This document shows positions 20,351 through 60,200 of a stretch of 64,000 nt of DNA, one piece after another. Location: IMG/VR virus record IMGVR_UViG_3300037141_000279, positions 1-64,000 of that record; one strand, 5' to 3'. Below the pieces are notes generated by a model. The model did not search any database, was not told where the DNA came from, and saw only the letters and a program-made list of their open reading frames with translations. The position numbers were made by a program, and so were the translations under genes. Each line of letters opens with the position of its first letter. Position 1 is the stretch's first letter. The stretch is from a virus.

Positions 20351-20393
20351 GTACGAAAGTACTATTGCTTGTTTTTCAGGATTCACGTAGAAT
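20351..20393 (+). promoter_or_regulatory. GTAC-N4-GTAC box plus sigma70 promoter
   Basis: GTACGAAAGTAC-TA-TTGCTT-17-TAGAAT. Confidence 0.8.
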
Positions 20394-20415
20394 GGTTGAC
20401 ATGGATGCAACACAA

Positions 20416-20925
20416 ATGAAGATGACACTCGCAGTAATCGTACTGGCTCTACTCTCGGCAGTTGGTGCTTCGGCTCATAAAGACAAACCTGTAACTCCTT
20501 GCACCGCATATTTCATGGTGGTTGAACAGGATGCCGCCACGGTCAATCTCGCCTTGACTGGACTTAATGGCCCTCAAGCAGATTGGTACAACAAACAGAA
20601 AAACATGAGTATCTGTTTTCTCAGCGCGGATGCATCAGGCAGGGGCAGGCGAGTGGTCGCCGACAAAGATGATTCGACCTTCAATTCGTATGTAGACTCG
20701 AAGGTTGGTTCCACACCCCTTTACATCATCGTTTGGGCAAATCAGCTTCTCTATAACCGTGCGGGGAACGCGTATTATGATGCCAGCGGGACCCTAAACC
20801 TTTGGGACACTAAGAAGCAAGATTTCGTTCCCGTTGGTCCAATCCACAACACAAATGCAACTATCTTTACTTCTTCGTCAGCATCTCTTCTTAAGGCAGG
20901 GATTGCAGAAATAGCACACCAGTAG
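20416..20925 (+). CDS. Secreted hypothetical protein
   Basis: Signal peptide MKMTLAVIVLALLSAVGASA. Confidence 0.65.
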   Translation: MKMTLAVIVLALLSAVGASAHKDKPVTPCTAYFMVVEQDAATVNLALTGLNGPQADWYNKQKNMSICFLSADASGRGRRVVADKDDSTFNSYVDSKVGSTPLYIIVWANQLLYNRAGNAYYDASGTLNLWDTKKQDFVPVGPIHNTNATIFTSSSASLLKAGIAEIAHQ

Positions 20926-20975
20926 TGCTCCCGCCCTTGGCTCCGCTTAGGAGCCTGGGTCGAGGTGCATTAAAA

Positions 20976-21323
20976 ATGAAAATCCTAGTCGTAGACGATA
21001 ACGTCGACATGGCAGAAGCCCTCGCCATGAATCTGGAGTACGCAGGACACACCGTCATCACCGCCCACGACGGCGCGGAGGGTCTCTTCAAATTTCGGGA
21101 GTCCCAATTCTCTAACACTCCGTTTGACGCCGTCGTATCCGATTGGCAGATGCCGAAGATGGACGGTATCGAGATGATTCAACAGATACGCAGAATGGCT
21201 CCACTCGTCAAAGTGGTGCTCGTGAGTGGAGGCGGTCCGCACGTCCCCGAAAGCATCCCGTTTCTCGCCAAGCCGTTCGGACGAGCGGAGTTGCTGGCTG
21301 CCTTGGGGGTTGAATCCAAATGA
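20976..21323 (+). CDS. Stand-alone response regulator receiver (CheY-like)
   Basis: KILVVDD, SDWQMPKMDG (phospho-Asp), SG, LAKPF. Confidence 0.92.
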   Translation: MKILVVDDNVDMAEALAMNLEYAGHTVITAHDGAEGLFKFRESQFSNTPFDAVVSDWQMPKMDGIEMIQQIRRMAPLVKVVLVSGGGPHVPESIPFLAKPFGRAELLAALGVESK

Positions 21324-29939: not shown

Positions 29940-30560
29940 TTACTTCGGCATGAATCCAGCGGCCGCCTTCCCTAATCCAGCAATCCCGCCCAGAACACCA
30001 GAAAGTTCGTTCCACCCTTGTTCCTTCGCTTGCAAAACGCCGCCGCCTGCGCTCACTCCCGCGCTGGACGCGCCGAGTGATCCGCTGATGTCTTGACCTG
30101 CTGCGCCACCGTAGTCTGCCCCCACTTGCTGCAGCCCGCTAAGTGATTTCCACATATTTTCTTGTTTTAGGGCTTCATCTTGCGATCCGAGTTGAGCCGT
30201 TTCGCTCGATTTTTCCTGGGCTGCCTGCGAAGCGATTTGTCCAACTACTGCGCCAGTGCCGCCGCCGCCGACATCCGCCGCGCCGTGCGTCCCACCAAAT
30301 GCCGCAGCCGCGCCGATGGCTTGCTTGGCCGCGCGCGAGGTATTTTCGTTGATCGAAGTCGTGGCCAGATGCAGTTGCTGCGGCGTATATCCCATCGGAT
30401 TCGCCGCCTGATACGCCATCCGCGCATTCAGGTTACCCAGAATCTGGCTCTGATTGGCCATAGACGACGTATACGCCGCCGTCAGGTTAGTGTTCGCCTT
30501 CAGGTTCGCATCTTGCAATGCCTGATCGTCTGCTGCGACTTGTCCGCCACTGCTGCACAT
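29940..30560 (-). CDS. Putative small ejection protein (Gly/Ala/Gln-rich, P22 gp7-like position)
   Basis: Starts MCSSGG, follows the GNAT gene, Gly/Ala-rich. Confidence 0.6.
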   Translation of the reverse strand: MCSSGGQVAADDQALQDANLKANTNLTAAYTSSMANQSQILGNLNARMAYQAANPMGYTPQQLHLATTSINENTSRAAKQAIGAAAAFGGTHGAADVGGGGTGAVVGQIASQAAQEKSSETAQLGSQDEALKQENMWKSLSGLQQVGADYGGAAGQDISGSLGASSAGVSAGGGVLQAKEQGWNELSGVLGGIAGLGKAAAGFMPK

Positions 30561-37714: not shown

Positions 37715-40399
37715 TTAGAAGCCCGCAACCGCAGGATACGAGCCCCGCGACCACGCGAGTGCAGGAGCCGTGATCGTGCTATTTAAGGCCCCTCCTGAAG
37801 TCGTCCCCGTGCCGCCACCAGGAGCCGCTGCGTTGGTAAACATCAAGTCACGTACTACTGCCGCATCCCCTGATATCCTGATTCCAGGGGTCACCGCGTT
37901 AGATGTGACAGCTACAGCGTACCACCCTGGAACCATGTTCACGGTCACAGGGCCGCCAGCCAGCGGGATTTTCATATCAGTTGCGTTTGTGGGGCAGATG
38001 GTAGTCCCTGGCAGTGCTCCTGTGTGGCAAACCAGCGGCACGTTTGCCGCGCCGTTTAGACACCCTGGACCATAAATGCCGATGTCGTAAAGATTTGAGG
38101 TATTGTCTGACAAGGTACCTTCATGGTAGGTTATATATGATAAAACAGAAACAAAATATGGGAGGTAAAAAGAATAAAGGAACGTGGCGTTTTGCGTGAG
38201 CCCTAGTATGACGTTTGCACTTGAAGTTGACGCCCCAGTGCTGAACGCAGTGGCTCCTGCTGGAAAAAGCGCCGTCGCCAACACGACCGCACCAGTTCCT
38301 GTCACGCCATTTGAGAGATCAGACGCAGCCAACGTCGCGTCCACATAGTCCGTCCCGTTGCCTCGCAGCACATGCCCTGCTGGCGCTGCGCCACCGATCT
38401 GAAACCCTACAGATGTGTTGATCACCCCTGTCACAGACAGCGGCGCGGGCATAGTTATTAAAGTTGCCCCAGGCGTGCCTGCGTGCGCGAAGACGAGCGT
38501 TGCAGTCGGGTTTGTGCCTGCCCCTATCACATCACTAAGAGACCAACTGTCGTAGGCGGACGCAGCGCCGTTCCAATATTGTCCGGTGATCGCTAGATAC
38601 CCAGAACTTTGATTCAAGATGTTGGTCGCGGGGGTTGTCGCTTGAATCGTAATATCCGTAGATGCGAACAACGCAGATGAAGATGTGATATTGCCCGCGT
38701 TAAGCGTTCCGACGAAATTAAATCCACCACCACCACCATACCCAGCATTCGTGAATGTCGTCACCATGCCTGGGTTTGTGCCTGCCGAGACCGTTCGCGT
38801 AATCGTGAACGAAGCATCTGCGCTCGCAGCGCCATTCCAATAAGTCGCCCCGAGTTTGAAAATAGGCGAAGACTGGTTTGCCCCGCTCGTCGCAGCGATC
38901 TTCAAATCAAGCGAGGTATTTCCGACGAAATTTACTTTTCCGCCTGCTGCGTATATGGCATAGTTGTTCGCGCCTGTCCCGAAGTCCTCGATGTACAAAC
39001 CGTAATTGTTCGTGGCGATGCTGTTCGCCTCCGAATAGAACCCATAAAGATTCGTGATAGTCGGAGTCGCTAGGTTATTTGCAAAAGTCAGCGCCTTAAA
39101 AGCGATGGCATTTGTAATGGTCGGAATGCCGACGGTTCCCAAAGTTGATTCTGTCTGACCCCCAGCACGCACTCCGATAAGGTTAGTTATTGAAGTACCC
39201 GCATCGTGCGAAACCCCAACCGCAAAGTGTCCGCCTACTGCGGTATCGGCATGGCTCCCATCCCAAACGGTCGCCTGAACCACAATACCCAATAGGGCGG
39301 CATTGGATGGAATATCGCCAGTCAAATTGCAATGGTCGTAAAGATCAACGTCAAAAAATCCGGCAGAAACAAAAGAATTTGGGTCTGTGACGCTTCGTAA
39401 ACCTGCAGATGCACGAATTCCGACAGTATCGACAACGCTTCCCGTGACATTAGATACAAGGTTCCAACACGCGATAGCCGCGCCAGGGCCATTCTGCGCG
39501 ATGACCTGAAACGCCGGAAGGTCTGTCGTGTCTGCCGTTCTGCTAGGGCTTATCTCGGTGATCTCATTTCTTGCTGTGACACCATATGTGAGAACATTTG
39601 TAACCCAATAAGGATCGATGCTAGAGTTTGGGTCTCCGAAATGCGTACTCGGTGTAATGATTGAAGGACTGGCAACTGTAACTAGCCCAGTGATTTTATT
39701 GTACGTGAATCCCGCGTTGCCGCCGAATGCACCACTGTCGTTGAATTGCACATCTGTGTTCAATCCGCCTGGAGTCGCTGGCGGAACAAGACCTGTGATA
39801 TCCGCTGCGTTAATCGCACGAAACGTCGGCAACGCATCTGATCCACCCGAGCCAGGACCTGCCAAAAAGAAATGAGGATGTTGAGGAAGCAGAGTCGGTG
39901 TCAGCGTTCCAATAGCTGTGACAGGCGCACTCGCTGTCGCGGTGAACAGCACGCCATCCCCTGTAAACGAAACAGAGGTGACCCCCGCAATAAAAGTAGT
40001 CGGGTAAAAAATGATGTTCCCGCCCGTCGTCGCATACGGCACCATCTGCCCGATGTCCACCGTTGTGCCCGTGGCTTCAGGGAACTGCCACCACATTGGA
40101 GATTTGTTGATGCGCGCGCCATTTTGGTCATAGAACGTGACCAAATAATATGTGCCCAATCCGTTCACATTCTGAGGATTCAATTCTGCGTTGCTGTAAA
40201 TTTGGGCAATGGGGTCAGGAGCGTTCGGCAGAATGTCGCCGTTTGCATCAAATTGAAAATACACCTCTAACTCTGCGGGCACAATTCCGTACGGAGCCGC
40301 GATGATCGTCGCATCAACATTGAGTTGAAACGAGATCGACCCGTTCGGCACCGCCAAACTTGAGATGTTCTGTATATGCCCGTTCACTAAAGTGATCAT
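37715..40399 (-). CDS. Tail fibre / receptor-binding protein
   Basis: From MITLVNG (~894 aa); Gly/Thr/Ala-rich fibre motifs (GVTSVS, PGG.NTDVQFND.GAFGG). Confidence 0.75.
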   Translation of the reverse strand: MITLVNGHIQNISSLAVPNGSISFQLNVDATIIAAPYGIVPAELEVYFQFDANGDILPNAPDPIAQIYSNAELNPQNVNGLGTYYLVTFYDQNGARINKSPMWWQFPEATGTTVDIGQMVPYATTGGNIIFYPTTFIAGVTSVSFTGDGVLFTATASAPVTAIGTLTPTLLPQHPHFFLAGPGSGGSDALPTFRAINAADITGLVPPATPGGLNTDVQFNDSGAFGGNAGFTYNKITGLVTVASPSIITPSTHFGDPNSSIDPYWVTNVLTYGVTARNEITEISPSRTADTTDLPAFQVIAQNGPGAAIACWNLVSNVTGSVVDTVGIRASAGLRSVTDPNSFVSAGFFDVDLYDHCNLTGDIPSNAALLGIVVQATVWDGSHADTAVGGHFAVGVSHDAGTSITNLIGVRAGGQTESTLGTVGIPTITNAIAFKALTFANNLATPTITNLYGFYSEANSIATNNYGLYIEDFGTGANNYAIYAAGGKVNFVGNTSLDLKIAATSGANQSSPIFKLGATYWNGAASADASFTITRTVSAGTNPGMVTTFTNAGYGGGGGFNFVGTLNAGNITSSSALFASTDITIQATTPATNILNQSSGYLAITGQYWNGAASAYDSWSLSDVIGAGTNPTATLVFAHAGTPGATLITMPAPLSVTGVINTSVGFQIGGAAPAGHVLRGNGTDYVDATLAASDLSNGVTGTGAVVLATALFPAGATAFSTGASTSSANVILGLTQNATFLYSFYLPYFVSVLSYITYHEGTLSDNTSNLYDIGIYGPGCLNGAANVPLVCHTGALPGTTICPTNATDMKIPLAGGPVTVNMVPGWYAVAVTSNAVTPGIRISGDAAVVRDLMFTNAAAPGGGTGTTSGGALNSTITAPALAWSRGSYPAVAGF

Positions 40400-48396: not shown

Positions 48397-49005
48397 TCAA
48401 TGTTGTTTCAAAAGTCTTATTCTAATTTTCTGTTTTGTCTTTTCAGACACAGCATGCCCCATCAAAGCGGCGCTGATTTTTCGTTTTGTCTCTTCCGAAC
48501 GCTTAGTGCCTGTCAGCCTAACCTTCATTCCCCATCTCGTCGCATCAGAGTGTTTTCGCCCCACGCCAGCCTTGCTAATTTTCTCTCTGGTTTCAGGAGA
48601 CGCTTTCTTTCCTTTTCGGTTATGATTACCTAAAGCGGAAATTCGCATTTTTTCTCGGGCGGCAAGAGTCATCTTTTTTCCTTTATTCCACGGGACGCCC
48701 GTATGCCCTTCGCCACCCCGACAAATGTTGTAACCAACTTCGGGATTCTGGGTATTCAACGATTTAATCAGCAATCGTTCCCAGTAGTCGCAGTCTTCTT
48801 TAGTCTGCAAGTCCGAAAACAGTGGATAAATACTCCACACACCGTGAGGATGAATTCTCATAGATGCGTAAAGATGCGACCGAGTTGAAATCCCTCTCTT
48901 CGCTTCGTACATCTTCTGCTGCAAGTACTGCCGCAGGTTGGTGCCTTTGTGCTGCCCAACATAAATCTTTAGAGTCTCGCTGTTGACAATCACATAGACG
49001 AACAT
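48397..49005 (-). CDS. GIY-YIG homing endonuclease with NUMOD3 repeats
   Basis: FVYVIVNSETLKIYVGQHKG; close paralogue of 40779-41501. Confidence 0.9.
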   Translation of the reverse strand: MFVYVIVNSETLKIYVGQHKGTNLRQYLQQKMYEAKRGISTRSHLYASMRIHPHGVWSIYPLFSDLQTKEDCDYWERLLIKSLNTQNPEVGYNICRGGEGHTGVPWNKGKKMTLAAREKMRISALGNHNRKGKKASPETREKISKAGVGRKHSDATRWGMKVRLTGTKRSEETKRKISAALMGHAVSEKTKQKIRIRLLKQH

Positions 49006-49604: not shown

Positions 49605-51112
49605 ATGTCCGAATCTTCATACAAAGAAGCCGCCGAAAAAGGATGGACTCAGCCGCATGTTTGCGAAATCTGCGGCGCGGAATGGGAGTGCATGTACTCA
49701 TTCTGCTGGGAGCCGTTCACCACAACCTGCGCTGCGTGCAAGTGCGGCCCCCTAGTCTGCGGCTTCAAAGAACCGTTCAGTCTTACTTGAGCCTGTTCTT
49801 TTTTCGGTACTCCCGCACCGTAGCCACATAATGGTCCGCACATCTCTTAGTCGGAAAATGCGCGACGTAGTCCACCATCTGCGCGCACCATTCTTCCCCA
49901 TGATACGCAGTGATGTCTTCCCAAATCTCATACAGTGCGTGCGGCATTAAGACCCTCCAGTCGGACAGTGATAACCAGATTGCCGCCCATGCGCTCGACC
50001 GAATAGTAGTTGGCGAGGTTGAGTGCAACCGTGCCCATCTTTGCACGCAGGTCTTTCTCGAATTGATTCACTGCGTCGGTGATAACTCTCTCTTTCAAGT
50101 TCGTCACATGTTTGGCGATATCAGCGTGAAAATCCCGCATTAGACGATCTTCAAACGTGCCTTGGGGCACTGCGACTACTGGTATCATCGGCTGTTCCAA
50201 TTCTCGCGCACAAACGACACCACCCAGACTGCGACGCCAACCATCAGAATTGAGAACCCGATCTTCATAATCAAATCACCAGTCGTTTCCATATTTCCTC
50301 CCGTCGATTATTCCTGAGACGACATTTCCTGTTCCATTGCTGCCGTTCGACCTTGATTGCGAGCATGTTGAACCATCGTCTTCCCTGCTTCGGCATCCAC
50401 ACCATGCATCGCACGATATCCTGCGAACGTGAACACAAAGCGCGCCGTGCGCCCTTGGGGAGCCAGTTCAACGTATTTGAATTCCCACCAGGGATAAAGT
50501 TCATCCAGGCGCGTGGCCGTCTGCATTAGGATATCATCGATGCCGTCGGGGTTGAACCCCTGCTTTGGTCCCGCGTGCTGAACGAAAGTTTTCGTTGGAA
50601 AGATCGCATCGGGATACACGATCTTGACCGTCACCTTGCGGAACAATCGGTTCCCAGCTTTATCTTTCATCATTGAAAACATCCTCCACTGTTTGGATGA
50701 TGATGGTCTCATCCTGTATCTGGGCGATCTGTTCAAACGTCACTTCACCTGATGGGTACCGCTGGCAGAACACACAATCTTCTGCCCGAGCCTTGCCGTG
50801 CTGGCATGGGTCGCACTCGCAGTGATCGCACATACACGCGTCGCAGGTGATGCAGACGCCTACAATGTGTCGGCAGAAATCGCAGTCAGGGTCTCTCATG
50901 TTAAACCTTTTCGGCCAGAGCAGCACCCAACTTCACTTGCAGGGCGTCATACTGCGCCAACAGAAAACGCTGGTCGCCTGGGGTGACGGCGAGGTTCGCG
51001 CCGAGGTTCCCACGGATCGCCTTGAAAATTTCTTCCAGCGTGCGTGTCTCTTTTACTACACGCTGGCTGTTCTTGACCGCGCGGGCTGCCTGTTCGCTAA
51101 CTGAGTGAGCCA
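49605..51112. other. Small hypothetical genes (49605-49790 +; 49783-49946, 49928-50200, 50308-50673, 50660-50898, 50901-51112 -), several Cys-rich
   Basis: Coupled ORFs; 50660-50898 contains CDFC..CITCDACMCDHCECDPC..CVFC. Confidence 0.5.
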
Positions 51113-51233
51113 TATATTCTCCTAGCAGATTGAATTTTAAGGAAGCGACGGATTGTCTGCTCACAACCCGTCGCCATATCGCTGTCAGATTGCATCTTGC
51201 CAGAATCTCAACCCAATGTCAAGTCTTTTCTTT

Positions 51234-51658
51234 GGGAATTATATAGTTGACTACCTTGATCCAACGTTCCGCAACGCAACCAAGGATATTTCTCTAAGGG
51301 ACTCCCCTGCATTGTGTTCGCAAAAATTGTGGCGACTCACAATCCATTCGGCCCACTCTTCTACAGAGGGGTTTCCAACCAAAGTCTTCCGTAACTCATC
51401 GGTCGGCATTCCATCAATCAGATAACGAACCATTTCTTCGGCTTGCGTAGCGTCGAACAAATTAGTCCCTACGGGTTCGTGCTTCATCGGATAAGCCGTA
51501 TGCTCGTTGAAGTTTGGTTTGAAGCTAATTCCTGCATCGGGGTTGAAGTTTTCAGGTAGCCTCCATTCAAGGAAACGATCTACCATGTACTTAATTTGTT
51601 CATCGTTCATCTGGCATATCTCCTTTATTTTCATGTGGGAGTTATCTATATAATTCCC
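51234..51658. mobile_element. Non-autonomous insertion cassette (MIC-like, IS1595 family ISNwi-type ends), copy 1
   Basis: 22-bp imperfect TIRs GGGAATTATATAGTTGACTACC / GGGAGTTATCTATATAATTCCC; 8-bp direct repeat TTTTCTTT on both flanks; no transposase. Confidence 0.85.
51251..51610 (-). CDS. Passenger gene of cassette 1 (hypothetical)
   Basis: MNDEQIKYMVDRFLEWRLPENFNPD...; fills the cassette, stop lies in the TIR. Confidence 0.7.
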   Translation of the reverse strand: MNDEQIKYMVDRFLEWRLPENFNPDAGISFKPNFNEHTAYPMKHEPVGTNLFDATQAEEMVRYLIDGMPTDELRKTLVGNPSVEEWAEWIVSRHNFCEHNAGESLREISLVALRNVGSR

Positions 51659-51665
51659 TTTTCTT

Positions 51666-52001
51666 TTATGGTGTTGGAATAATCGCAGAGACTTCATTCG
51701 AAAATGCAGACTCTGCCGTGCTGTTTACGGCAGTCACTACGTAGAAGTAAGTCACCCCTGCGATATCATTTTTGTCTGCAAATGAAGTCGCAGTCGATGA
51801 GCCGATCTTGGTGTATGGGCCGCCGTGGGTTCCCGAAACATACACGTTGTAGGAGGTGGCACCTGTCGATGCAGTCCAGGTAAGCGTGACCACATGACCC
51901 ACCACCACCACATAGGTTTTTGATGCTTTATCCTGTGCCCTCGCGCCGACAGCCGAAGCCATCAGCGCGAGAGCCAGGACGAATGTGCGAAGCCACTTCA
52001 C
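51666..52001 (-). CDS. Secreted fibronectin type III domain protein
   Basis: Signal peptide; VTLTWTAS.GATSYNVY...YFYVVTAVN...ES.FSNEV. Confidence 0.85.
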   Translation of the reverse strand: MKWLRTFVLALALMASAVGARAQDKASKTYVVVVGHVVTLTWTASTGATSYNVYVSGTHGGPYTKIGSSTATSFADKNDIAGVTYFYVVTAVNSTAESAFSNEVSAIIPTP

Positions 52002-52666
52002 GAACGATTGCCTCTCACGAAGAGAGAAGCAACTTCAATTCGTGCCTTGATTTCCATCTTGACGATGTTTGTCGCAGAATCAGTGACTGTAATCGTAAAC
52101 GTGAACGACCCCGCCGCCGCTGGTGTACCAGAGATCACACCTGTGGAAGACAACGTGAGGCCTGTCGGCAACGATCCGGTAGTGACTGCGAACGTATATG
52201 GAGTCACACCGCCTGTGGCAACAAGGCTTGTCGTGTAGTTCACGCCAATATTAGCCGCGGGCAGAGATGAAGTTGAAACGGAAAGCGTTGGAATCACAGT
52301 CACAGTGTACGCCTGTGAAGCAGCGACCGTAGGCGTTTCTGCGTCTGCAACGTGAATTGTGAATGTGCCGGAACCTGCAGTCGTCGGTGTACCTGAAATC
52401 ACACCAGTGCTTGCCGCAAGCGTGAGTCCCGCAGGAAGGGTGCCTGCCGCCACAGAAAACGTATAAGGTGCAAGTCCACCAGCGGCGCTGACTGTAGTTT
52501 GATAAACAAGACCAACCATCCCACCAGGAATACTTGTCGGTGTGATTACCACCGCACCTGCGTTGACGGTCAGCGTGAGTGATTTGGTTGCTTTATCCTG
52601 AGCCCGAGACAGCCCAGGAAGAAACAACATGAACACCAATGCAAAAAGAATCTTACGAATTCTCAT
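51998..52666 (-). CDS. Secreted protein with two putative Ig (He_PIG) domains
   Basis: Signal peptide; GG.xPYTF.V..G.LP.GLTL...TGVISGTP x2. Confidence 0.88.
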   Translation of the reverse strand: MRIRKILFALVFMLFLPGLSRAQDKATKSLTLTVNAGAVVITPTSIPGGMVGLVYQTTVSAAGGLAPYTFSVAAGTLPAGLTLAASTGVISGTPTTAGSGTFTIHVADAETPTVAASQAYTVTVIPTLSVSTSSLPAANIGVNYTTSLVATGGVTPYTFAVTTGSLPTGLTLSSTGVISGTPAAAGSFTFTITVTDSATNIVKMEIKARIEVASLFVRGNRS

Positions 52667-53000
52667 CTGTCTTTCCTCCTATTTGAATGTCAGCCGAGGA
52701 CGCAGCCGAGTCGATTACTTGAATTGTAAAACTAAACGAGCCCGAACTACTTGGAATGCCTGAGACCACACCAGAAGAACTCAAGGTGAGACCAGCCGGA
52801 AGACCTCCAATCACAACACTCCATATGTATGGTGCCGTCCCTCCAGTCGCCGTGAATTGTTGAGCGTACACCTCTCCAACTGTTGCGGCTGGAAGATTAA
52901 CAGTGATCGTCAACACTGGCGGGGGTGGCGCAGGCGTTGGTGACGTACACCCCGCCAGCATCACCACAAACAACAGAGCCAACAGATAAACAAATCGCAT
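52653..53000 (-). CDS. Lipoprotein with a putative Ig (He_PIG) domain
   Basis: LAGC lipobox; GGTAPY.W....GLPAGLTLSSSGVVSGIP; promoter TTGACA-17-TAGAGT at 53021-53049. Confidence 0.85.
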   Translation of the reverse strand: MRFVYLLALLFVVMLAGCTSPTPAPPPPVLTITVNLPAATVGEVYAQQFTATGGTAPYIWSVVIGGLPAGLTLSSSGVVSGIPSSSGSFSFTIQVIDSAASSADIQIGGKTDENS

Positions 53001-53060
53001 TGATATCTCCCTCGCCCAACACTCTAATCTGCGTTCAACTCAATGTCAAGGATTTTTTTT

Positions 53061-53525
53061 GGGAATTATATAGTTAACTCCCTCGCTCTTAGGCCAGCGT
53101 GAAGTCAACATAGTATTCTTTGCCTTGCTCGAATTGAGCTAAAGCTGCGTCGTTGAGTACATTTAAGTTGAGGTTTCCGCCCGGAGTAGATGCGAAGAAT
53201 TTCTTATTCTCCTCGCTGCCGGAGTAAACCGGATACAAGTACACTGTTTTGTTCTTTTCATCCTTGAAACTGCATACCATTTTTGCTCGAACTGACATTT
53301 GGTGCTCCTTTTGCAAGGCCATTCGTGCGGCCTCGACAAGCTTAACGAGCGCATCAGAACGCTCCCTAATCTCTTCTGCTGTGGGATCATCATGGCGAGG
53401 CCCGAGACGAATATGCTCGATGCAATCACAACGCCTGTCTATAACCTGACCGTCGCCAACCCATTTATTTTCATCATTGAGGACTTTCATCGCTTCTCCT
53501 TAAGGGAGTTAACTATATAATTCCC
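53061..53525. mobile_element. Non-autonomous insertion cassette (MIC-like, IS1595 family ISNwi-type ends), copy 2
   Basis: Perfect 22-bp TIRs GGGAATTATATAGTTAACTCCC; 8-bp T8 direct repeat on both flanks; different passenger from copy 1. Confidence 0.88.
53089..53490 (-). CDS. Passenger gene(s) of cassette 2 (hypothetical; C-terminal MSVRAK... module)
   Basis: 133 aa ORF filling the cassette; AAGGAG SD just inside the TIR. Confidence 0.65.
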   Translation of the reverse strand: MKVLNDENKWVGDGQVIDRRCDCIEHIRLGPRHDDPTAEEIRERSDALVKLVEAARMALQKEHQMSVRAKMVCSFKDEKNKTVYLYPVYSGSEENKKFFASTPGGNLNLNVLNDAALAQFEQGKEYYVDFTLA

Positions 53526-53943
53526 TTTTTTTTTCATATTTCTCAAACCAGAACACTATCGGAATTTTTACCTCAACAACCAAACCAAATCTCTCTGCGT
53601 GCCGAAAAGCAGAATAGTTTCGCCGACATACGTCTACCCGCCTCTGCATCTGCTGTCGCCATGATTCAAGCGGAGATGCATGTTTGTCTATATTGCACGC
53701 TCGACAAGATGGAAAGAGATTGTCTAACCTATCGTTCTCTGGTCGCTCGAAGCCCGCCACCGAGCCAGGATGTCTCAAAAGCCATTCCGCAGTCTTCCAC
53801 CACTCCCGATGGACAGGATCAACATGGTCTGCGTGCCACCCTTTTTCGGGAAGTTCACAACCACAATATGCACACTTCCCTCCAAACTTCAAACGTAAAA
53901 CAGAGCGTTGTGTTTTATTTAATGTCATTTCTTTTTTGACCAA
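53509..53943 (-). CDS. HNH endonuclease
   Basis: KFGGKCAYCG...WHADHVDP...NLFPSCRACNIDK; stop lies inside the cassette TIR. Confidence 0.9.
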   Translation of the reverse strand: MVKKEMTLNKTQRSVLRLKFGGKCAYCGCELPEKGWHADHVDPVHREWWKTAEWLLRHPGSVAGFERPENDRLDNLFPSCRACNIDKHASPLESWRQQMQRRVDVCRRNYSAFRHAERFGLVVEVKIPIVFWFEKYEKKRELYS

Positions 53944-54269
53944 TGTGGCGTGCGGTCACTGTGCGCATCCTGGTGGCACTTCGGGCAGATGAAGACCGAA
54001 TTATCCAGCGAGATTTCGCCACCCTTGCCGCGGTGCTTCTGTTCGTGCATGTGTCCTGACTTTTCAGTCACTGGCGTGGCGCACAACTCACATTCACCTT
54101 TACATCGGAGCCAAAGTTGATGCCTTATATCTGCGACGACAGGCGCATAAAACGCTTGGGTGATATCCTTGCCTGATGCTTGTGCGAATGCCTGTGCTGA
54201 TTTTCGATTTTTGAAAATACGAATCGCATGCTCTGTTTTGTTTATCTCTATCCAAACAAGTTTTCTCAT
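53925..54269 (-). CDS. HNH endonuclease
   Basis: CELC...HMHEQKHRGKGG...NSVFICPKCH. Confidence 0.8.
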   Translation of the reverse strand: MRKLVWIEINKTEHAIRIFKNRKSAQAFAQASGKDITQAFYAPVVADIRHQLWLRCKGECELCATPVTEKSGHMHEQKHRGKGGEISLDNSVFICPKCHQDAHSDRTPHWSKKK

Positions 54270-54715
54270 TTATATTTCTCCAAATAATCGGCGCAGGCAC
54301 GCAAACGCTCCACTGATTCTTTGGCGTTTCCAATGGTAAAATTGCACGGATGGCATAAAATTCCACGAATCTGCTTCGTGGTGTGGTTGTGGTCCACACA
54401 CCAAGGGTTAATCATTTTGCGTTTTTTAGGATAATACCCAACTTTAGAACTTCTGCATGATGCGCACTTACGCCCCTGCTTTTCAAACTTGATTGCTTTT
54501 TCTTCTGCTGTGATGCCGTAGGTTCTTTTTACTCTGGACCTGCTTGCAGTTAACGCGTGCTGTTTCTTATGACTTCGTCCCCACAATTTAGAACGAAGCC
54601 GACCGCAAGAAAGACAGTACGAATCAACTTTTCCTTTTCGTGTGATTTGACGAGGCTTCCGATGACATCTGCAACAGAGGCCTTTCGGCTTTACCCATGT
54701 CTTATTCTTCTGCAC
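54266..54715 (-). CDS. Endonuclease VII-like HNH nuclease
   Basis: YGIT...QGRKCASC...CVDHNH..KQIRGILCHPCN..IG. Confidence 0.88.
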   Translation of the reverse strand: MQKNKTWVKPKGLCCRCHRKPRQITRKGKVDSYCLSCGRLRSKLWGRSHKKQHALTASRSRVKRTYGITAEEKAIKFEKQGRKCASCRSSKVGYYPKKRKMINPWCVDHNHTTKQIRGILCHPCNFTIGNAKESVERLRACADYLEKYK

Positions 54716-58084: not shown

Positions 58085-58285
58085 AAATACATTTGGACAT
58101 TTGGACAAAGACGGTAACCCCTTGATAATAAGAGAAATGAACGTGTCCAGAAGTCTATCCAGAAGTGTTTGGGACTTCTGGTTACGTGACCAAATGTCCA
58201 AATGTCCAGAAGTGGTTAAAAGACTTTTGGTCATAGATATATATAATAGAATCATATACATACAAACTTGTCCAAATGTATTGTA
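58085..58285. repeat. Putative replication origin: TGTCCA/TGGACA iterons plus AT-rich stretch
   Basis: ATTTGGACATTTGGACA, inverted TGTCCAAATGTCCAGAAG, TCCAGAAGT repeats, TAGATATATATAATAAG; directly downstream of the primase-helicase. Confidence 0.6.
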
Positions 58286-58295
58286 ACTTTCGCAG

Positions 58296-60200
58296 CTAGG
58301 AGACATCATCAACACCCTCATAGTGAAGTAAAGGCGAACGCTCCCCATCCATTTCTACCTTCTCTGCCCCAACTTCGTGCATCTCAGGGAGAGACCACAT
58401 CACGCAAGACACAGTTCGATCTTTGTTGTTCGGCGGTTTTGTGCTTGTGGCAGGAACAATAATTGATTGAATCTCCGATTTGATGGGGATTGCATCCGCC
58501 GCGCGATTCAACGTGCTCCGACTGATGCGTGCTAACGCCTCCGCGCGCGCATAAACCACCTTACTCTCTTTCGGGCCAGATTGAAGTTCCTTCTCCAGCC
58601 ACTCAATGGCTTTTTGTTGGGCGATGTTGGGTCGCCCCATCTGTTTTTGTTCAGGCTCAGGTTCTTCCGTGGCTTGGACAGGCACCAAACGCCCGCCCTC
58701 GAACTGAAGAGTGAATTTCTCGGCAGGAGCGTTGCGTGGAAGTATGGTTAAGACCCTCTGGGGGGCTGTGCCGTCGTCATCCTCGGAGAATTCGAGTACA
58801 CAGACCGTTTCACAGTTCCGACCCCATGCTTCGCTTCCTGACAGCTTATCCCGCTTGGCGGCGTAATCCTCTCCCCGCTTGGTTTTGGGTGCGCCGACAC
58901 TACACACCAAAGCGATGTGGAAGTGAGCGGCGGTCTCTTGTAGTTGGCGCATGAACGGCGACACGACAGACTTCTTGTTGGCATCATCAAGAAGCATGTC
59001 CAGCCCCTCGATGAAGATGACGTTTGGGGTTGGGTTCATCTTTTCAATTTCATTGATAATCCCCTGCACAGCGTCCGTCCCGAAAGCAAGCGGAAGCGGA
59101 GTCGTAGGGATATCTGTCGGAAGGAGGTTCAACCTTCGCATTGTGCGTGTAAACGCGTTCCTGCCTCGGTCGTAAGCCAGGACTTGAAACGTGTATTTAT
59201 GGGTACTGTGTTCGAGCACAGGATATCCTTGCTTTTGTTTATGCAGCATTTCAAAAATCCAGGTTGTCTTTCCTGTGCCGCTTGCCCCGCCGATCAGGCT
59301 GATGTCACCGAGTGGAAACCACCCATCCTCTTGTCCATTCGCAGGCGCAACCACATAATCACCATCAGGGTCAGGCAAAGCAGGAGTGTGAAATTCAATA
59401 GACTCAGAGACGAACACAGGTTTGCCCGTGCGTTCTGTGTCTATCGCCGCTTTGATGGTACGCTGGCGATAATCGGCACGATCCCGCCATTTATCCCGCT
59501 GCCCAAGAGCCGAGAACCCGAAAAACTTCTCCATCTTCGCAGGATCGTTTTGCGTGAGTCGTGCCAATTCACGCATCAGGGCGTAGTCGGCACTGGAATC
59601 ATCCCCCTCGAATGTGGACGTATCTCCCAACCACAGCAGCTTGAATTTTTTATCTTTATTTTTGGTGATCAGCATGTACGGGAGGGTCATATCGGCGATG
59701 GGGTTCACATCATGGCCGATGACTTTTTCCCCTGTCATTGTGAAATATCTGCCGCCCTCTCGACCGTGGTAGATTTCAATGCCGACGTGACCTTGAGATA
59801 GTTTGCGCCCGCCCTCGGGGAGAACGTCACACTCCACAAAAGCGTGCAGACCTCGCCCACTGGGAGAAGTTTCGGTGTACGGACTGCCGAGAAGGTTCAA
59901 AATCGATAAGGCGTATGGGTCGATGATGCCTTTGTTCGTGATGGCGCTGTCAAAATCAATTCCCACAAGGTTGGTGCCGCCGAGTTCAAATCCAACGCCG
60001 TTGTAATCCCCACCTTTTAGGACATCGGCAGCATCCATCGCCTGTTCAAAAGTAGTCCAGGTGTTGGGGTCGTCCGCCTTCGCCATGGCTCCTGTCTTTG
60101 CATTGAATGGGACCTTGGTTTCCTTGCCATCTCGAACAAGTGCTTTCCAGCACACCCAGTTCGGGCGTTGTTTGAGCACATCAGGAATATCATTCAGCAC
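58296..60200 (-). CDS. Primase-polymerase fused to a RecA-like (AAA_25) helicase
   Basis: NWVCWK..KVPF, GIDFD, YTETSPSGRGLH, IEIY..GRYFTMTG; Walker A GASGTGKT. Confidence 0.9.
   Translation of the reverse strand: MLNDIPDVLKQRPNWVCWKALVRDGKETKVPFNAKTGAMAKADDPNTWTTFEQAMDAADVLKGGDYNGVGFELGGTNLVGIDFDSAITNKGIIDPYALSILNLLGSPYTETSPSGRGLHAFVECDVLPEGGRKLSQGHVGIEIYHGREGGRYFTMTGEKVIGHDVNPIADMTLPYMLITKNKDKKFKLLWLGDTSTFEGDDSSADYALMRELARLTQNDPAKMEKFFGFSALGQRDKWRDRADYRQRTIKAAIDTERTGKPVFVSESIEFHTPALPDPDGDYVVAPANGQEDGWFPLGDISLIGGASGTGKTTWIFEMLHKQKQGYPVLEHSTHKYTFQVLAYDRGRNAFTRTMRRLNLLPTDIPTTPLPLAFGTDAVQGIINEIEKMNPTPNVIFIEGLDMLLDDANKKSVVSPFMRQLQETAAHFHIALVCSVGAPKTKRGEDYAAKRDKLSGSEAWGRNCETVCVLEFSEDDDGTAPQRVLTILPRNAPAEKFTLQFEGGRLVPVQATEEPEPEQKQMGRPNIAQQKAIEWLEKELQSGPKESKVVYARAEALARISRSTLNRAADAIPIKSEIQSIIVPATSTKPPNNKDRTVSCVMWSLPEMHEVGAEKVEMDGERSPLLHYEGVDDVS

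Follow-up and report, generated by a model that had tools for sequence, protein, structure and literature searches.

The DNA analysed here, called the window throughout, comprises 64,000 nt (positions 1 to 64,000 of the IMG/VR virus record IMGVR_UViG_3300037141_000279) from a phage genome of 96,295 bp. All genes between 48 and 57 kb of the window lie on the minus strand, and in order of transcription an HNH-like gene (53925-54269) and an HNH endonuclease gene (53509-53943) are followed by a short one-gene element (cassette B), a predicted promoter (P_B), three genes for immunoglobulin-like (Ig-like) proteins, a second one-gene element (cassette A), another predicted promoter (P_A) and the gene 51113-50901 (Table 1). 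The two cassettes, which are the subject of this study, have their ends in common, and the evidence presented below suggests that they most probably originated from two independent insertions of mobile insertion cassettes (MICs) derived from insertion sequences (ISs) of the IS1595 family, one ordinary gene having replaced the transposase gene in each.

The 22-nt end, GGGAATTATATAGTTAACTCCC, was found in four copies in the window with 0-2 mismatches, against an expectation of 0 from shuffled sequence; these copies, located at 51234-51255 (+), 51637-51658 (-), 53061-53082 (+) and 53504-53525 (-), constitute two inverted pairs, with arm complementarities of 23/23 in cassette B and 19/22 in cassette A. 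Each cassette is bordered on both sides by a perfect 8-bp direct repeat, i.e. a target-site duplication (TSD), and is built very compactly, from one end through 13-26 nt containing AAGGAG, one open reading frame (ORF) and a further 0-6 nt to the other end. G+C contents of 44.5% and 46% were determined for cassettes A and B, respectively, versus 52.6% for the genome. The proteins encoded by the two cargo genes are mutually unrelated, while both genes lie on the minus strand as all the neighboring genes do. A first-pass annotation of the window had described just such a pair of cassettes, with shared 22-bp ends, 8-bp duplications, unrelated passengers and co-orientation with the operon, and all of these features were recovered. 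Family scans detected no transposase domain in the single ORF of either cassette, and an IS1595 transposase was found neither in the window nor in the remaining phage genome, as expected if the cassettes are non-autonomous derivatives. A megablast search of the 4-kb region against deposited phages returned no match.

Table 1. Positions of the two cassettes and of the adjoining features in the window (TSD sequences are given for the plus strand).
Feature	Position	Strand	Description
Predicted promoter P_A	51194..51222	minus	TTGACA-17-CAAGAT, serves gene 50901-51113
TSD of cassette A, P_A side	51226..51233		TTTTCTTT; identical to 51659-51666, including the C
Cassette A	51234..51658	minus	425-bp transposase-less mobile insertion cassette of IS1595 type
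Cargo A	51251..51610	minus	119 aa, preceded by AAGGAG, no assigned function
TSD of cassette A, distal copy	51659..51666		Adjoins the stop codon of the third Ig gene
Ig operon	51666..53000	minus	Three secreted/lipoprotein Ig-like genes (He_PIG, fn3), between the cassettes and part of neither
Predicted promoter P_B	53021..53049	minus	TTGACA-17-TAGAGT, serves the Ig operon
TSD of cassette B, P_B side	53053..53060		TTTTTTTT
Cassette B	53061..53525	minus	465-bp transposase-less mobile insertion cassette of IS1595 type, perfect ends
Cargo B	53089..53490	minus	133 aa, preceded by AAGGAG, no assigned function
HNH endonuclease gene	53509..53943	minus	Stop codon (53509-53511) inside the right end of cassette B
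TSD of cassette B, distal copy	53526..53533		Within the 3' end of the HNH gene

The search for the end was extended to the full phage genome, which holds no fifth copy, and to other contigs, both viral and bacterial, where the ends proved plentiful; within 51000-54400, additional degenerate ends were absent even when up to 7 mismatches were allowed. Each 22-mer displays a partial dyad symmetry (GGGAnTTAnnTAnnTAAnTCCC), as the sites of a site-specific recombinase or invertase, or the operators of a dimeric regulator, would also do. Such an origin is extremely improbable, because the four genome copies form only two inverted pairs, each with a duplicated flank, no recombinase gene was found nearby, and the target duplications and transposases found across the whole family of these ends, described in the following, favor transposition.

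The family was collected by an exact-pattern scan of viral contigs and bacterial genome contigs, and all counts given for it here and below are counts among the matches listed. The scan yielded at least 117 end-bearing stretches in viral contigs and at least 120 in bacterial genome contigs, the latter from many phyla and mostly from metagenome-assembled genomes of soil, peat and freshwater; all four window ends begin with GGGAATTAT, as do about 190 ends at other loci. Pairing neighboring ends in inverted orientation produced 115 elements of 56-3459 bp, and perfect 8-bp duplications surround 88 of them, versus 0.96 under shuffled pairing. These duplications all differ, are 80-82% A+T and have a weak palindromic bias towards C at position 1 and G at position 8. 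A transposase ORF of 303-375 aa was present in 35 elements, representing nearly all of those longer than 1.3 kb, and matched the Pfam families DDE_Tnp_IS1595 (PF12762, E 1e-38 to 1e-45) and Zn_ribbon_IS1595 (PF12760, E 1e-10 to 1e-11). The 35 transposases have 52-100% identity to the reference copy; D135, D205, E269 and R273 are conserved in 35/35, E241 and K248 in 33/35, and no conserved R was found at +7. Thus, the cognate IS1595 transposase, with the same ends and the same length of duplication, was located in other viral and bacterial contigs; among the full-length copies, one has its transposase ORF at L007:680-1600, and the ends of the copy in L306 are identical to those of cassette B. 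In addition, 26 distinct viral elements of 250-1025 bp lack a transposase, contain one main ORF and are built like cassettes A and B. The ISNwi1 group of the IS1595 family is one that we take, following ISfinder, to be defined by a DDEK+ER4 residue pattern, ggnnatTAT ends and an 8-bp duplication; such ends and the 8-bp TSD are present in the window, and the zinc ribbon, the DDE domain and the DDEK+ER4 pattern are present in the full-length relatives. Together, the ends, the TSDs and the transposase-bearing full-length copies support the proposal of the first-pass annotation that the cassettes are non-autonomous IS1595 derivatives, i.e. MICs. The closest transposases in a plasmid collection are at most 44% identical, and any IS1595-like transposase was found in only 5 of 50,697 deposited phage records, none at more than 36% identity.

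Positions 14-16 of the end read ATG in most copies and TTA, TTG or ATA in the window, where the cargoes start further in. At several loci (L021:1728-2420, L012:6285-6962, L241 and L277) this end-borne ATG starts the element's gene, such as that of a C5 methyltransferase, whose Pfam match begins at residue 6, or of a Mom-like protein, matching from residue 13; the start codon of the transposase, too, is this ATG in two bacterial copies. As a separate observation on the transposase genes, the codon-aligned antisense frame was stop-free over the last ~306 codons in 21/35 of them (viral loci L007, L011, L030, L039, L045, L048, L063, L070, L105, L113 and L115; bacterial loci L220, L241, L244, L263, L270, L277, L290 and L292), the other antisense frames having 6-21 stops and the number predicted from flanking genes being 1-7 per gene. 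In the viral copies, this frame runs from the ATG in positions 14-16 of one end and stays open for 396-752 codons, reaching the opposite end or passing through it. Its products had no Pfam match, and their conservation is confined to the part overlapping the transposase; the idea that the frame keeps translation running through the element, so avoiding polarity, was not supported, as orientation relative to the flanking genes showed no bias.

By querying with the Ig protein, two syntenic relatives of the phage, G001 and G002 (96.7 and 98.2 kb, 97-98% complete), were identified, each containing homologues of about 175 ORFs of the window's genome and zero copies of the end anywhere. In both, the homologue of the 114-aa gene (53925-54269) is followed by ~115 bp and then by the homologue of gene 50901-51113. 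This short intergenic sequence reads CACG AAGAAAA CCC TTGACA in G001, with a single AAGAAAA, and CGCAAAAA CAC TTGACA (CAAAAA-CAC-TTGACA) in G002; its promoter and leader are orthologous to P_A and its leader, with the spacer motif and a leader hairpin in common. The octamer that surrounds cassette A in duplicate is present here once, in an orthologous site that is empty. The end scan uncovered two more relatives, in which this promoter has an insertion: L068 contains a cassette of 842 bp, with a cargo of 266 aa and GACAAAAA as its duplication, and L047 one of 315 bp, with CTAAATAG as its duplication, in each case exactly 3 nt before TTGACA. Of the five related phages compared at this promoter, two therefore have the empty allele, and each of the other three has its own independent insertion, the cargo differing among them. 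The first-pass annotation had named the absence of empty sites and of a transposase with these ends as observations that would tell against it; empty sites and such a transposase were in fact both found, and its suggestion that such cassettes add accessory genes (morons) to phages gained support from the three cargoes that three related phages carry at this promoter. Closer empty or filled alleles, sought by an exact pattern of the A-tract and the P_A/P_B core, were not found in viral contigs; a shorter core pattern retrieved 120 metagenome-contig stretches, none of which resembled the window, indicating chance matches, and a search with the 142-aa neighboring protein found no relatives.

The leader hairpin downstream of P_A, which has a GAGCA-containing loop, lies at ~51135-51175 (minus) in the window and has counterparts at ~30310-30345 in G001, ~38700-38735 in G002 and ~6420-6455 in L068; it is kept in all the relatives with differing stem sequences, and could be a conserved regulatory RNA element.

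Both cassettes of the window lie at a fixed place relative to a promoter, the distance from the TSD to the TTGACA box being exactly 3 nt at P_A and at P_B. To examine the family in this respect, the position of TTGACA was scored over 164 element flanks. An exact TTGACA was found at offset 11, i.e. 3 nt after the duplication, in 6 of the 164, two being the window's own, and at offset 10 in one more; when one mismatch was permitted, 10 flanks had it at offset 11 versus ~1 at any other offset, and the reversed hexamer gave no offset peak. The proximal UP subsite of a promoter occupies -46 to -39 and is typically an A-tract, and this is the position at which the duplicated octamer sits. The targeting of an A/T tract beside the -35 box, which had been noticed at the two window sites, is thus real and recurs across the end family, and a preference of the family for A+T-rich octamers would, in a genome of 52.6% G+C, direct insertion to promoter-proximal A-tracts. 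Most of the 88 duplication-bearing sites are not beside promoters.

The association with promoters brings another origin into consideration. Promoter-stem-loop cassettes of T4-type phages have been proposed to shuffle genes by homologous recombination, and the ends could likewise belong to promoter-associated modules, in which repeats of a stem-loop, an A-tract and a promoter would recombine. Each end is indeed a partial palindrome and, with the adjoining T-run, resembles a plus-strand terminator: the right ends with the T-rich TSD (51637-51668 and 53502-53535) score as intrinsic terminators on the plus strand, antisense to the local genes, which may be incidental or may serve to block antisense transcription. 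P_A and P_B are, moreover, alike at 22 of 26 nt spanning the A-tract, the 3 nt and TTGACATTGRGTTGA, a motif occurring nowhere else in the three genomes; the Ig operon lies between the two copies of this direct repeat, which may have been left by recombination. As an account of the cassettes, such modules are nonetheless very improbable, since the 88 sites at which the ends are bordered by an 8-bp duplication differ in the sequence of that duplication and lie mostly away from promoters, and since the ends enclose an IS1595 transposase in the full-length copies; what promoter recombination may still explain is the move of the Ig operon.

That the operon has moved follows from its position in the relatives, where it lies (at 58163-59509 in G001 and 66318-67596 in G002) upstream of the transfer-messenger RNA (tmRNA) gene, ~28-30 kb away, while other genes occupy that site in the window. 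These are two plus-strand genes at 20365-21323, one for a 186-aa protein with a signal-peptide-like start and the other for a 132-aa protein resembling, by eye, a response-regulator receiver domain. Relative to G001 and G002, the ~2.7 kb of extra DNA at the cassette locus consists of the HNH gene, cassette B, P_B with the Ig operon, and cassette A. The first-pass annotation had raised the possibility that the outer ends (51234 and 53525) mobilised the 2.3-kb block of cassette A, Ig operon and cassette B as a composite transposon, and the correct inversion of these ends, the changed place of the operon and the coincidence of one border of the extra DNA with the target of cassette A would agree with such a move. 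The flanks, however, argue for two separate events: each cassette has the same octamer on its inner and on its outer side (TTTTCTTT in A, TTTTTTTT in B), making two perfect TSDs, and the two outer flanks differ, the opposite of the pattern that a composite move predicts, so the one shared duplication around the whole unit by which a composite transposon is recognised was sought and is absent. The HNH gene, too, is part of the extra DNA but is not within the supposed unit, and a preference for promoter-proximal A-tracts accounts for insertions at both borders of a promoter-bounded operon. A composite move is therefore improbable, and the suggestion of it was abandoned; the Ig operon may instead have been relocated by recombination at the promoters, the 26-nt direct repeat of P_A and P_B that brackets it being the scar.

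The HNH gene upstream of cassette B is absent from G001 and G002, and its last five codons and stop are supplied by the duplication and the right end of the cassette; without cassette B, its frame would remain open as far as a TAG within the P_B -10 box. A search with the gene, which is itself mobile, returned 208 relatives, and the best of them, L122, provided no informative empty site, its sole resemblance to the ends being a weak one in a single 22-mer that has 5 mismatches. Four genes of homing-type nucleases lie within 6.5 kb of the cassettes (48397-49005, 53509-53943, 53925-54269 and 54266-54715), comprising one homing endonuclease, two HNH enzymes and one endonuclease VII-like enzyme, and this cluster marks the cassette region as a hot spot of mobile DNA.

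For the two cargo proteins, Pfam, PHROGs, PADLOC and a protein atlas gave nothing beyond 'unknown phage protein', and both belong to widespread families of small phage proteins. Cargo A, the stop codon of which (51251-53) is inside the left end of its cassette, has more than 740 homologues, the full-length ones being 84-97% identical, and its first ~70 aa form a widespread small phage domain; for the C-terminal 70 aa of cargo B, matches were obtained to phrog_6978 and to a large cluster of viral proteins of ~75 aa. In the homologues P0048, P0189 and P0232, the conserved ~70-aa domains of cargo A or B are fused to a C-terminal domain related to crAss001_48 (PF21825), so that the two unrelated domains have a fusion partner in common. 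Both lineages were also traced to other places. In viral contig L118 (412-894), a 483-bp cassette with the TSD CAATGAAA encodes a protein that has 60% identity to cargo B. Phage contig L337 (2440-2790) contains cassette A in decayed form: the left end has a 4-bp TATA insertion, the leader is the same, and codons 1-79 of cargo A, at 95% identity, are joined directly to AAGAAAA-GTG-CTTGACA, the right half having been deleted exactly to the target duplication beside the -35 box. This copy illustrates a route from a cassette to a fixed gene. The conserved 70-aa N-terminal domain of cargo A was found as well in ordinary phage genes without ends (L338 and L339), and cargo A therefore looks to have been captured from the phage gene stock.

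Across the family, elements of at most 1450 bp contain 44 main ORFs, which fell into 33 sequence clusters, one of which consists of transposases or their fragments. When 33 cargo ORFs were scanned against family libraries, the recognisable ones encoded DNA methyltransferases (N6/N4 and C5), Mom-like, PAPS-reductase-like and nucleoside deoxyribosyltransferase proteins, being mostly DNA-modification enzymes, and the remaining scanned ORFs gave no recognisable function.

Taken together, we consider it highly probable (about 0.92) that cassettes A and B are two independent insertions of IS1595-derived MICs. In the mechanism we propose, a zinc-ribbon DDE transposase would be supplied in trans by a full-length element, residing either in the chromosome of the host or in a co-infecting phage, bind the 22-bp ends and insert the cassette into an A+T-rich 8-bp target, which is thereby duplicated. 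Mobilisation in trans is suggested, only indirectly, by the members of both cassette lineages at other sites (L118 and L337) and by the three cassettes at one orthologous promoter. In a phage of 52.6% G+C, such octamers would be offered by the promoter-proximal UP element, which would place both cassettes 3 nt upstream of a -35 box; because the duplication restores the A-tract beside that box, the promoter downstream of the cassette would be expected to remain intact. Each cargo gene, having its own Shine-Dalgarno sequence and the orientation of the surrounding operons, is probably expressed by read-through transcription, and may bring some benefit to the phage. Several points weigh against this interpretation. 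No transposition was observed, and no filled/empty polymorphism was found within one phage population; the empty-site relatives are only ~65% identical in DNA, thus providing orthologous sites and not exact pre-insertion alleles; promoter-like and terminator-like matches are no commoner in the region than in shuffled sequence; and the co-orientation of cargo with the genes on both sides, found in 13/17 informative viral cassettes, is a crude majority in a crude test.

More tentatively, at somewhat below even odds for the whole of what follows, this subfamily of IS1595, marked by the ends GGGAATTATATAG..., may have become adapted to phages as a shuttle for single genes, with a preference for insertion at the proximal UP element, exactly 3 nt before the -35 box of sigma-70 promoters. 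It would leave operons unbroken by restoring the A-tract with its 8-bp duplication, and would spread genes of counter-defence (those for orphan DNA methyltransferases and for Mom-like and other enzymes of DNA modification) together with many small unknown genes among unrelated phages and their hosts. If so, cargoes A and B would be candidates for new anti-defence or host-takeover functions. As the recognisable cargo consists mostly of DNA-modification enzymes, the unassigned cargoes, including A and B, make a shortlist for anti-defence screens. Transposons are rare in deposited phage genomes, whereas in uncultured phages one end sequence marks more than 100 elements; the allele series at one promoter provides a concrete route for the gain of a single accessory gene, distinct from homologous and illegitimate recombination, and the fixed distance to the -35 box makes a simple prediction on target choice.

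In the literature searched, the coverage of which was incomplete, no paper on IS1595 cassettes in phages, on their fixed distance to promoters or on the breadth of their cargo was found. Among known systems, PMC3129680 treats MICs and passenger-carrying ISs as established concepts, and cites Siguier, Gagnevin and Chandler (2009) for the passenger-carrying 'transporter IS' of IS1595 and De Palmenaer et al. (2004) for MIC231, derived from IS231 of Bacillus cereus. Like transporter ISs, many full-length relatives of the cassettes carry extra genes. Cassettes A and B resemble MICs in that parent-IS ends flank only non-transposase genes, the cargo varies and mobilisation is presumed to occur in trans; unlike in MIC231, the parent family is IS1595 and not IS4, the carrier is a phage and not a chromosome or plasmid, the build is a very compact one of a single gene with 6-48 nt of spacer to either side, and sites 3 nt upstream of -35 boxes are preferred.

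With ISNwi1-like members of IS1595, the cassettes have in common the GGnnATTAT ends and the A+T-rich 8-bp TSD, and their full-length relatives have in common the ~305-aa zinc-ribbon DDE_Tnp_IS1595 transposase with D, D, E, K(+7) plus E-R(+4); the window cassettes differ from such elements in being without any transposase. The mycobacteriophage elements MPME1 and MPME2 (MPMEs) are ~440 bp long, with short inverted ends and one small ORF, and occupy varying sites in related phages; as far as is known, every copy contains the same ORF and none makes an 8-bp duplication. The window cassettes are like them in being ultra-small elements with short inverted ends, and unlike them in carrying unrelated cargo and in having a recognised DDE transposon origin. 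The kind of element is thus a known one, the IS1595-derived MIC, and its less familiar parts are the phage setting, the fixed distance to the promoter and the breadth of the cargo.

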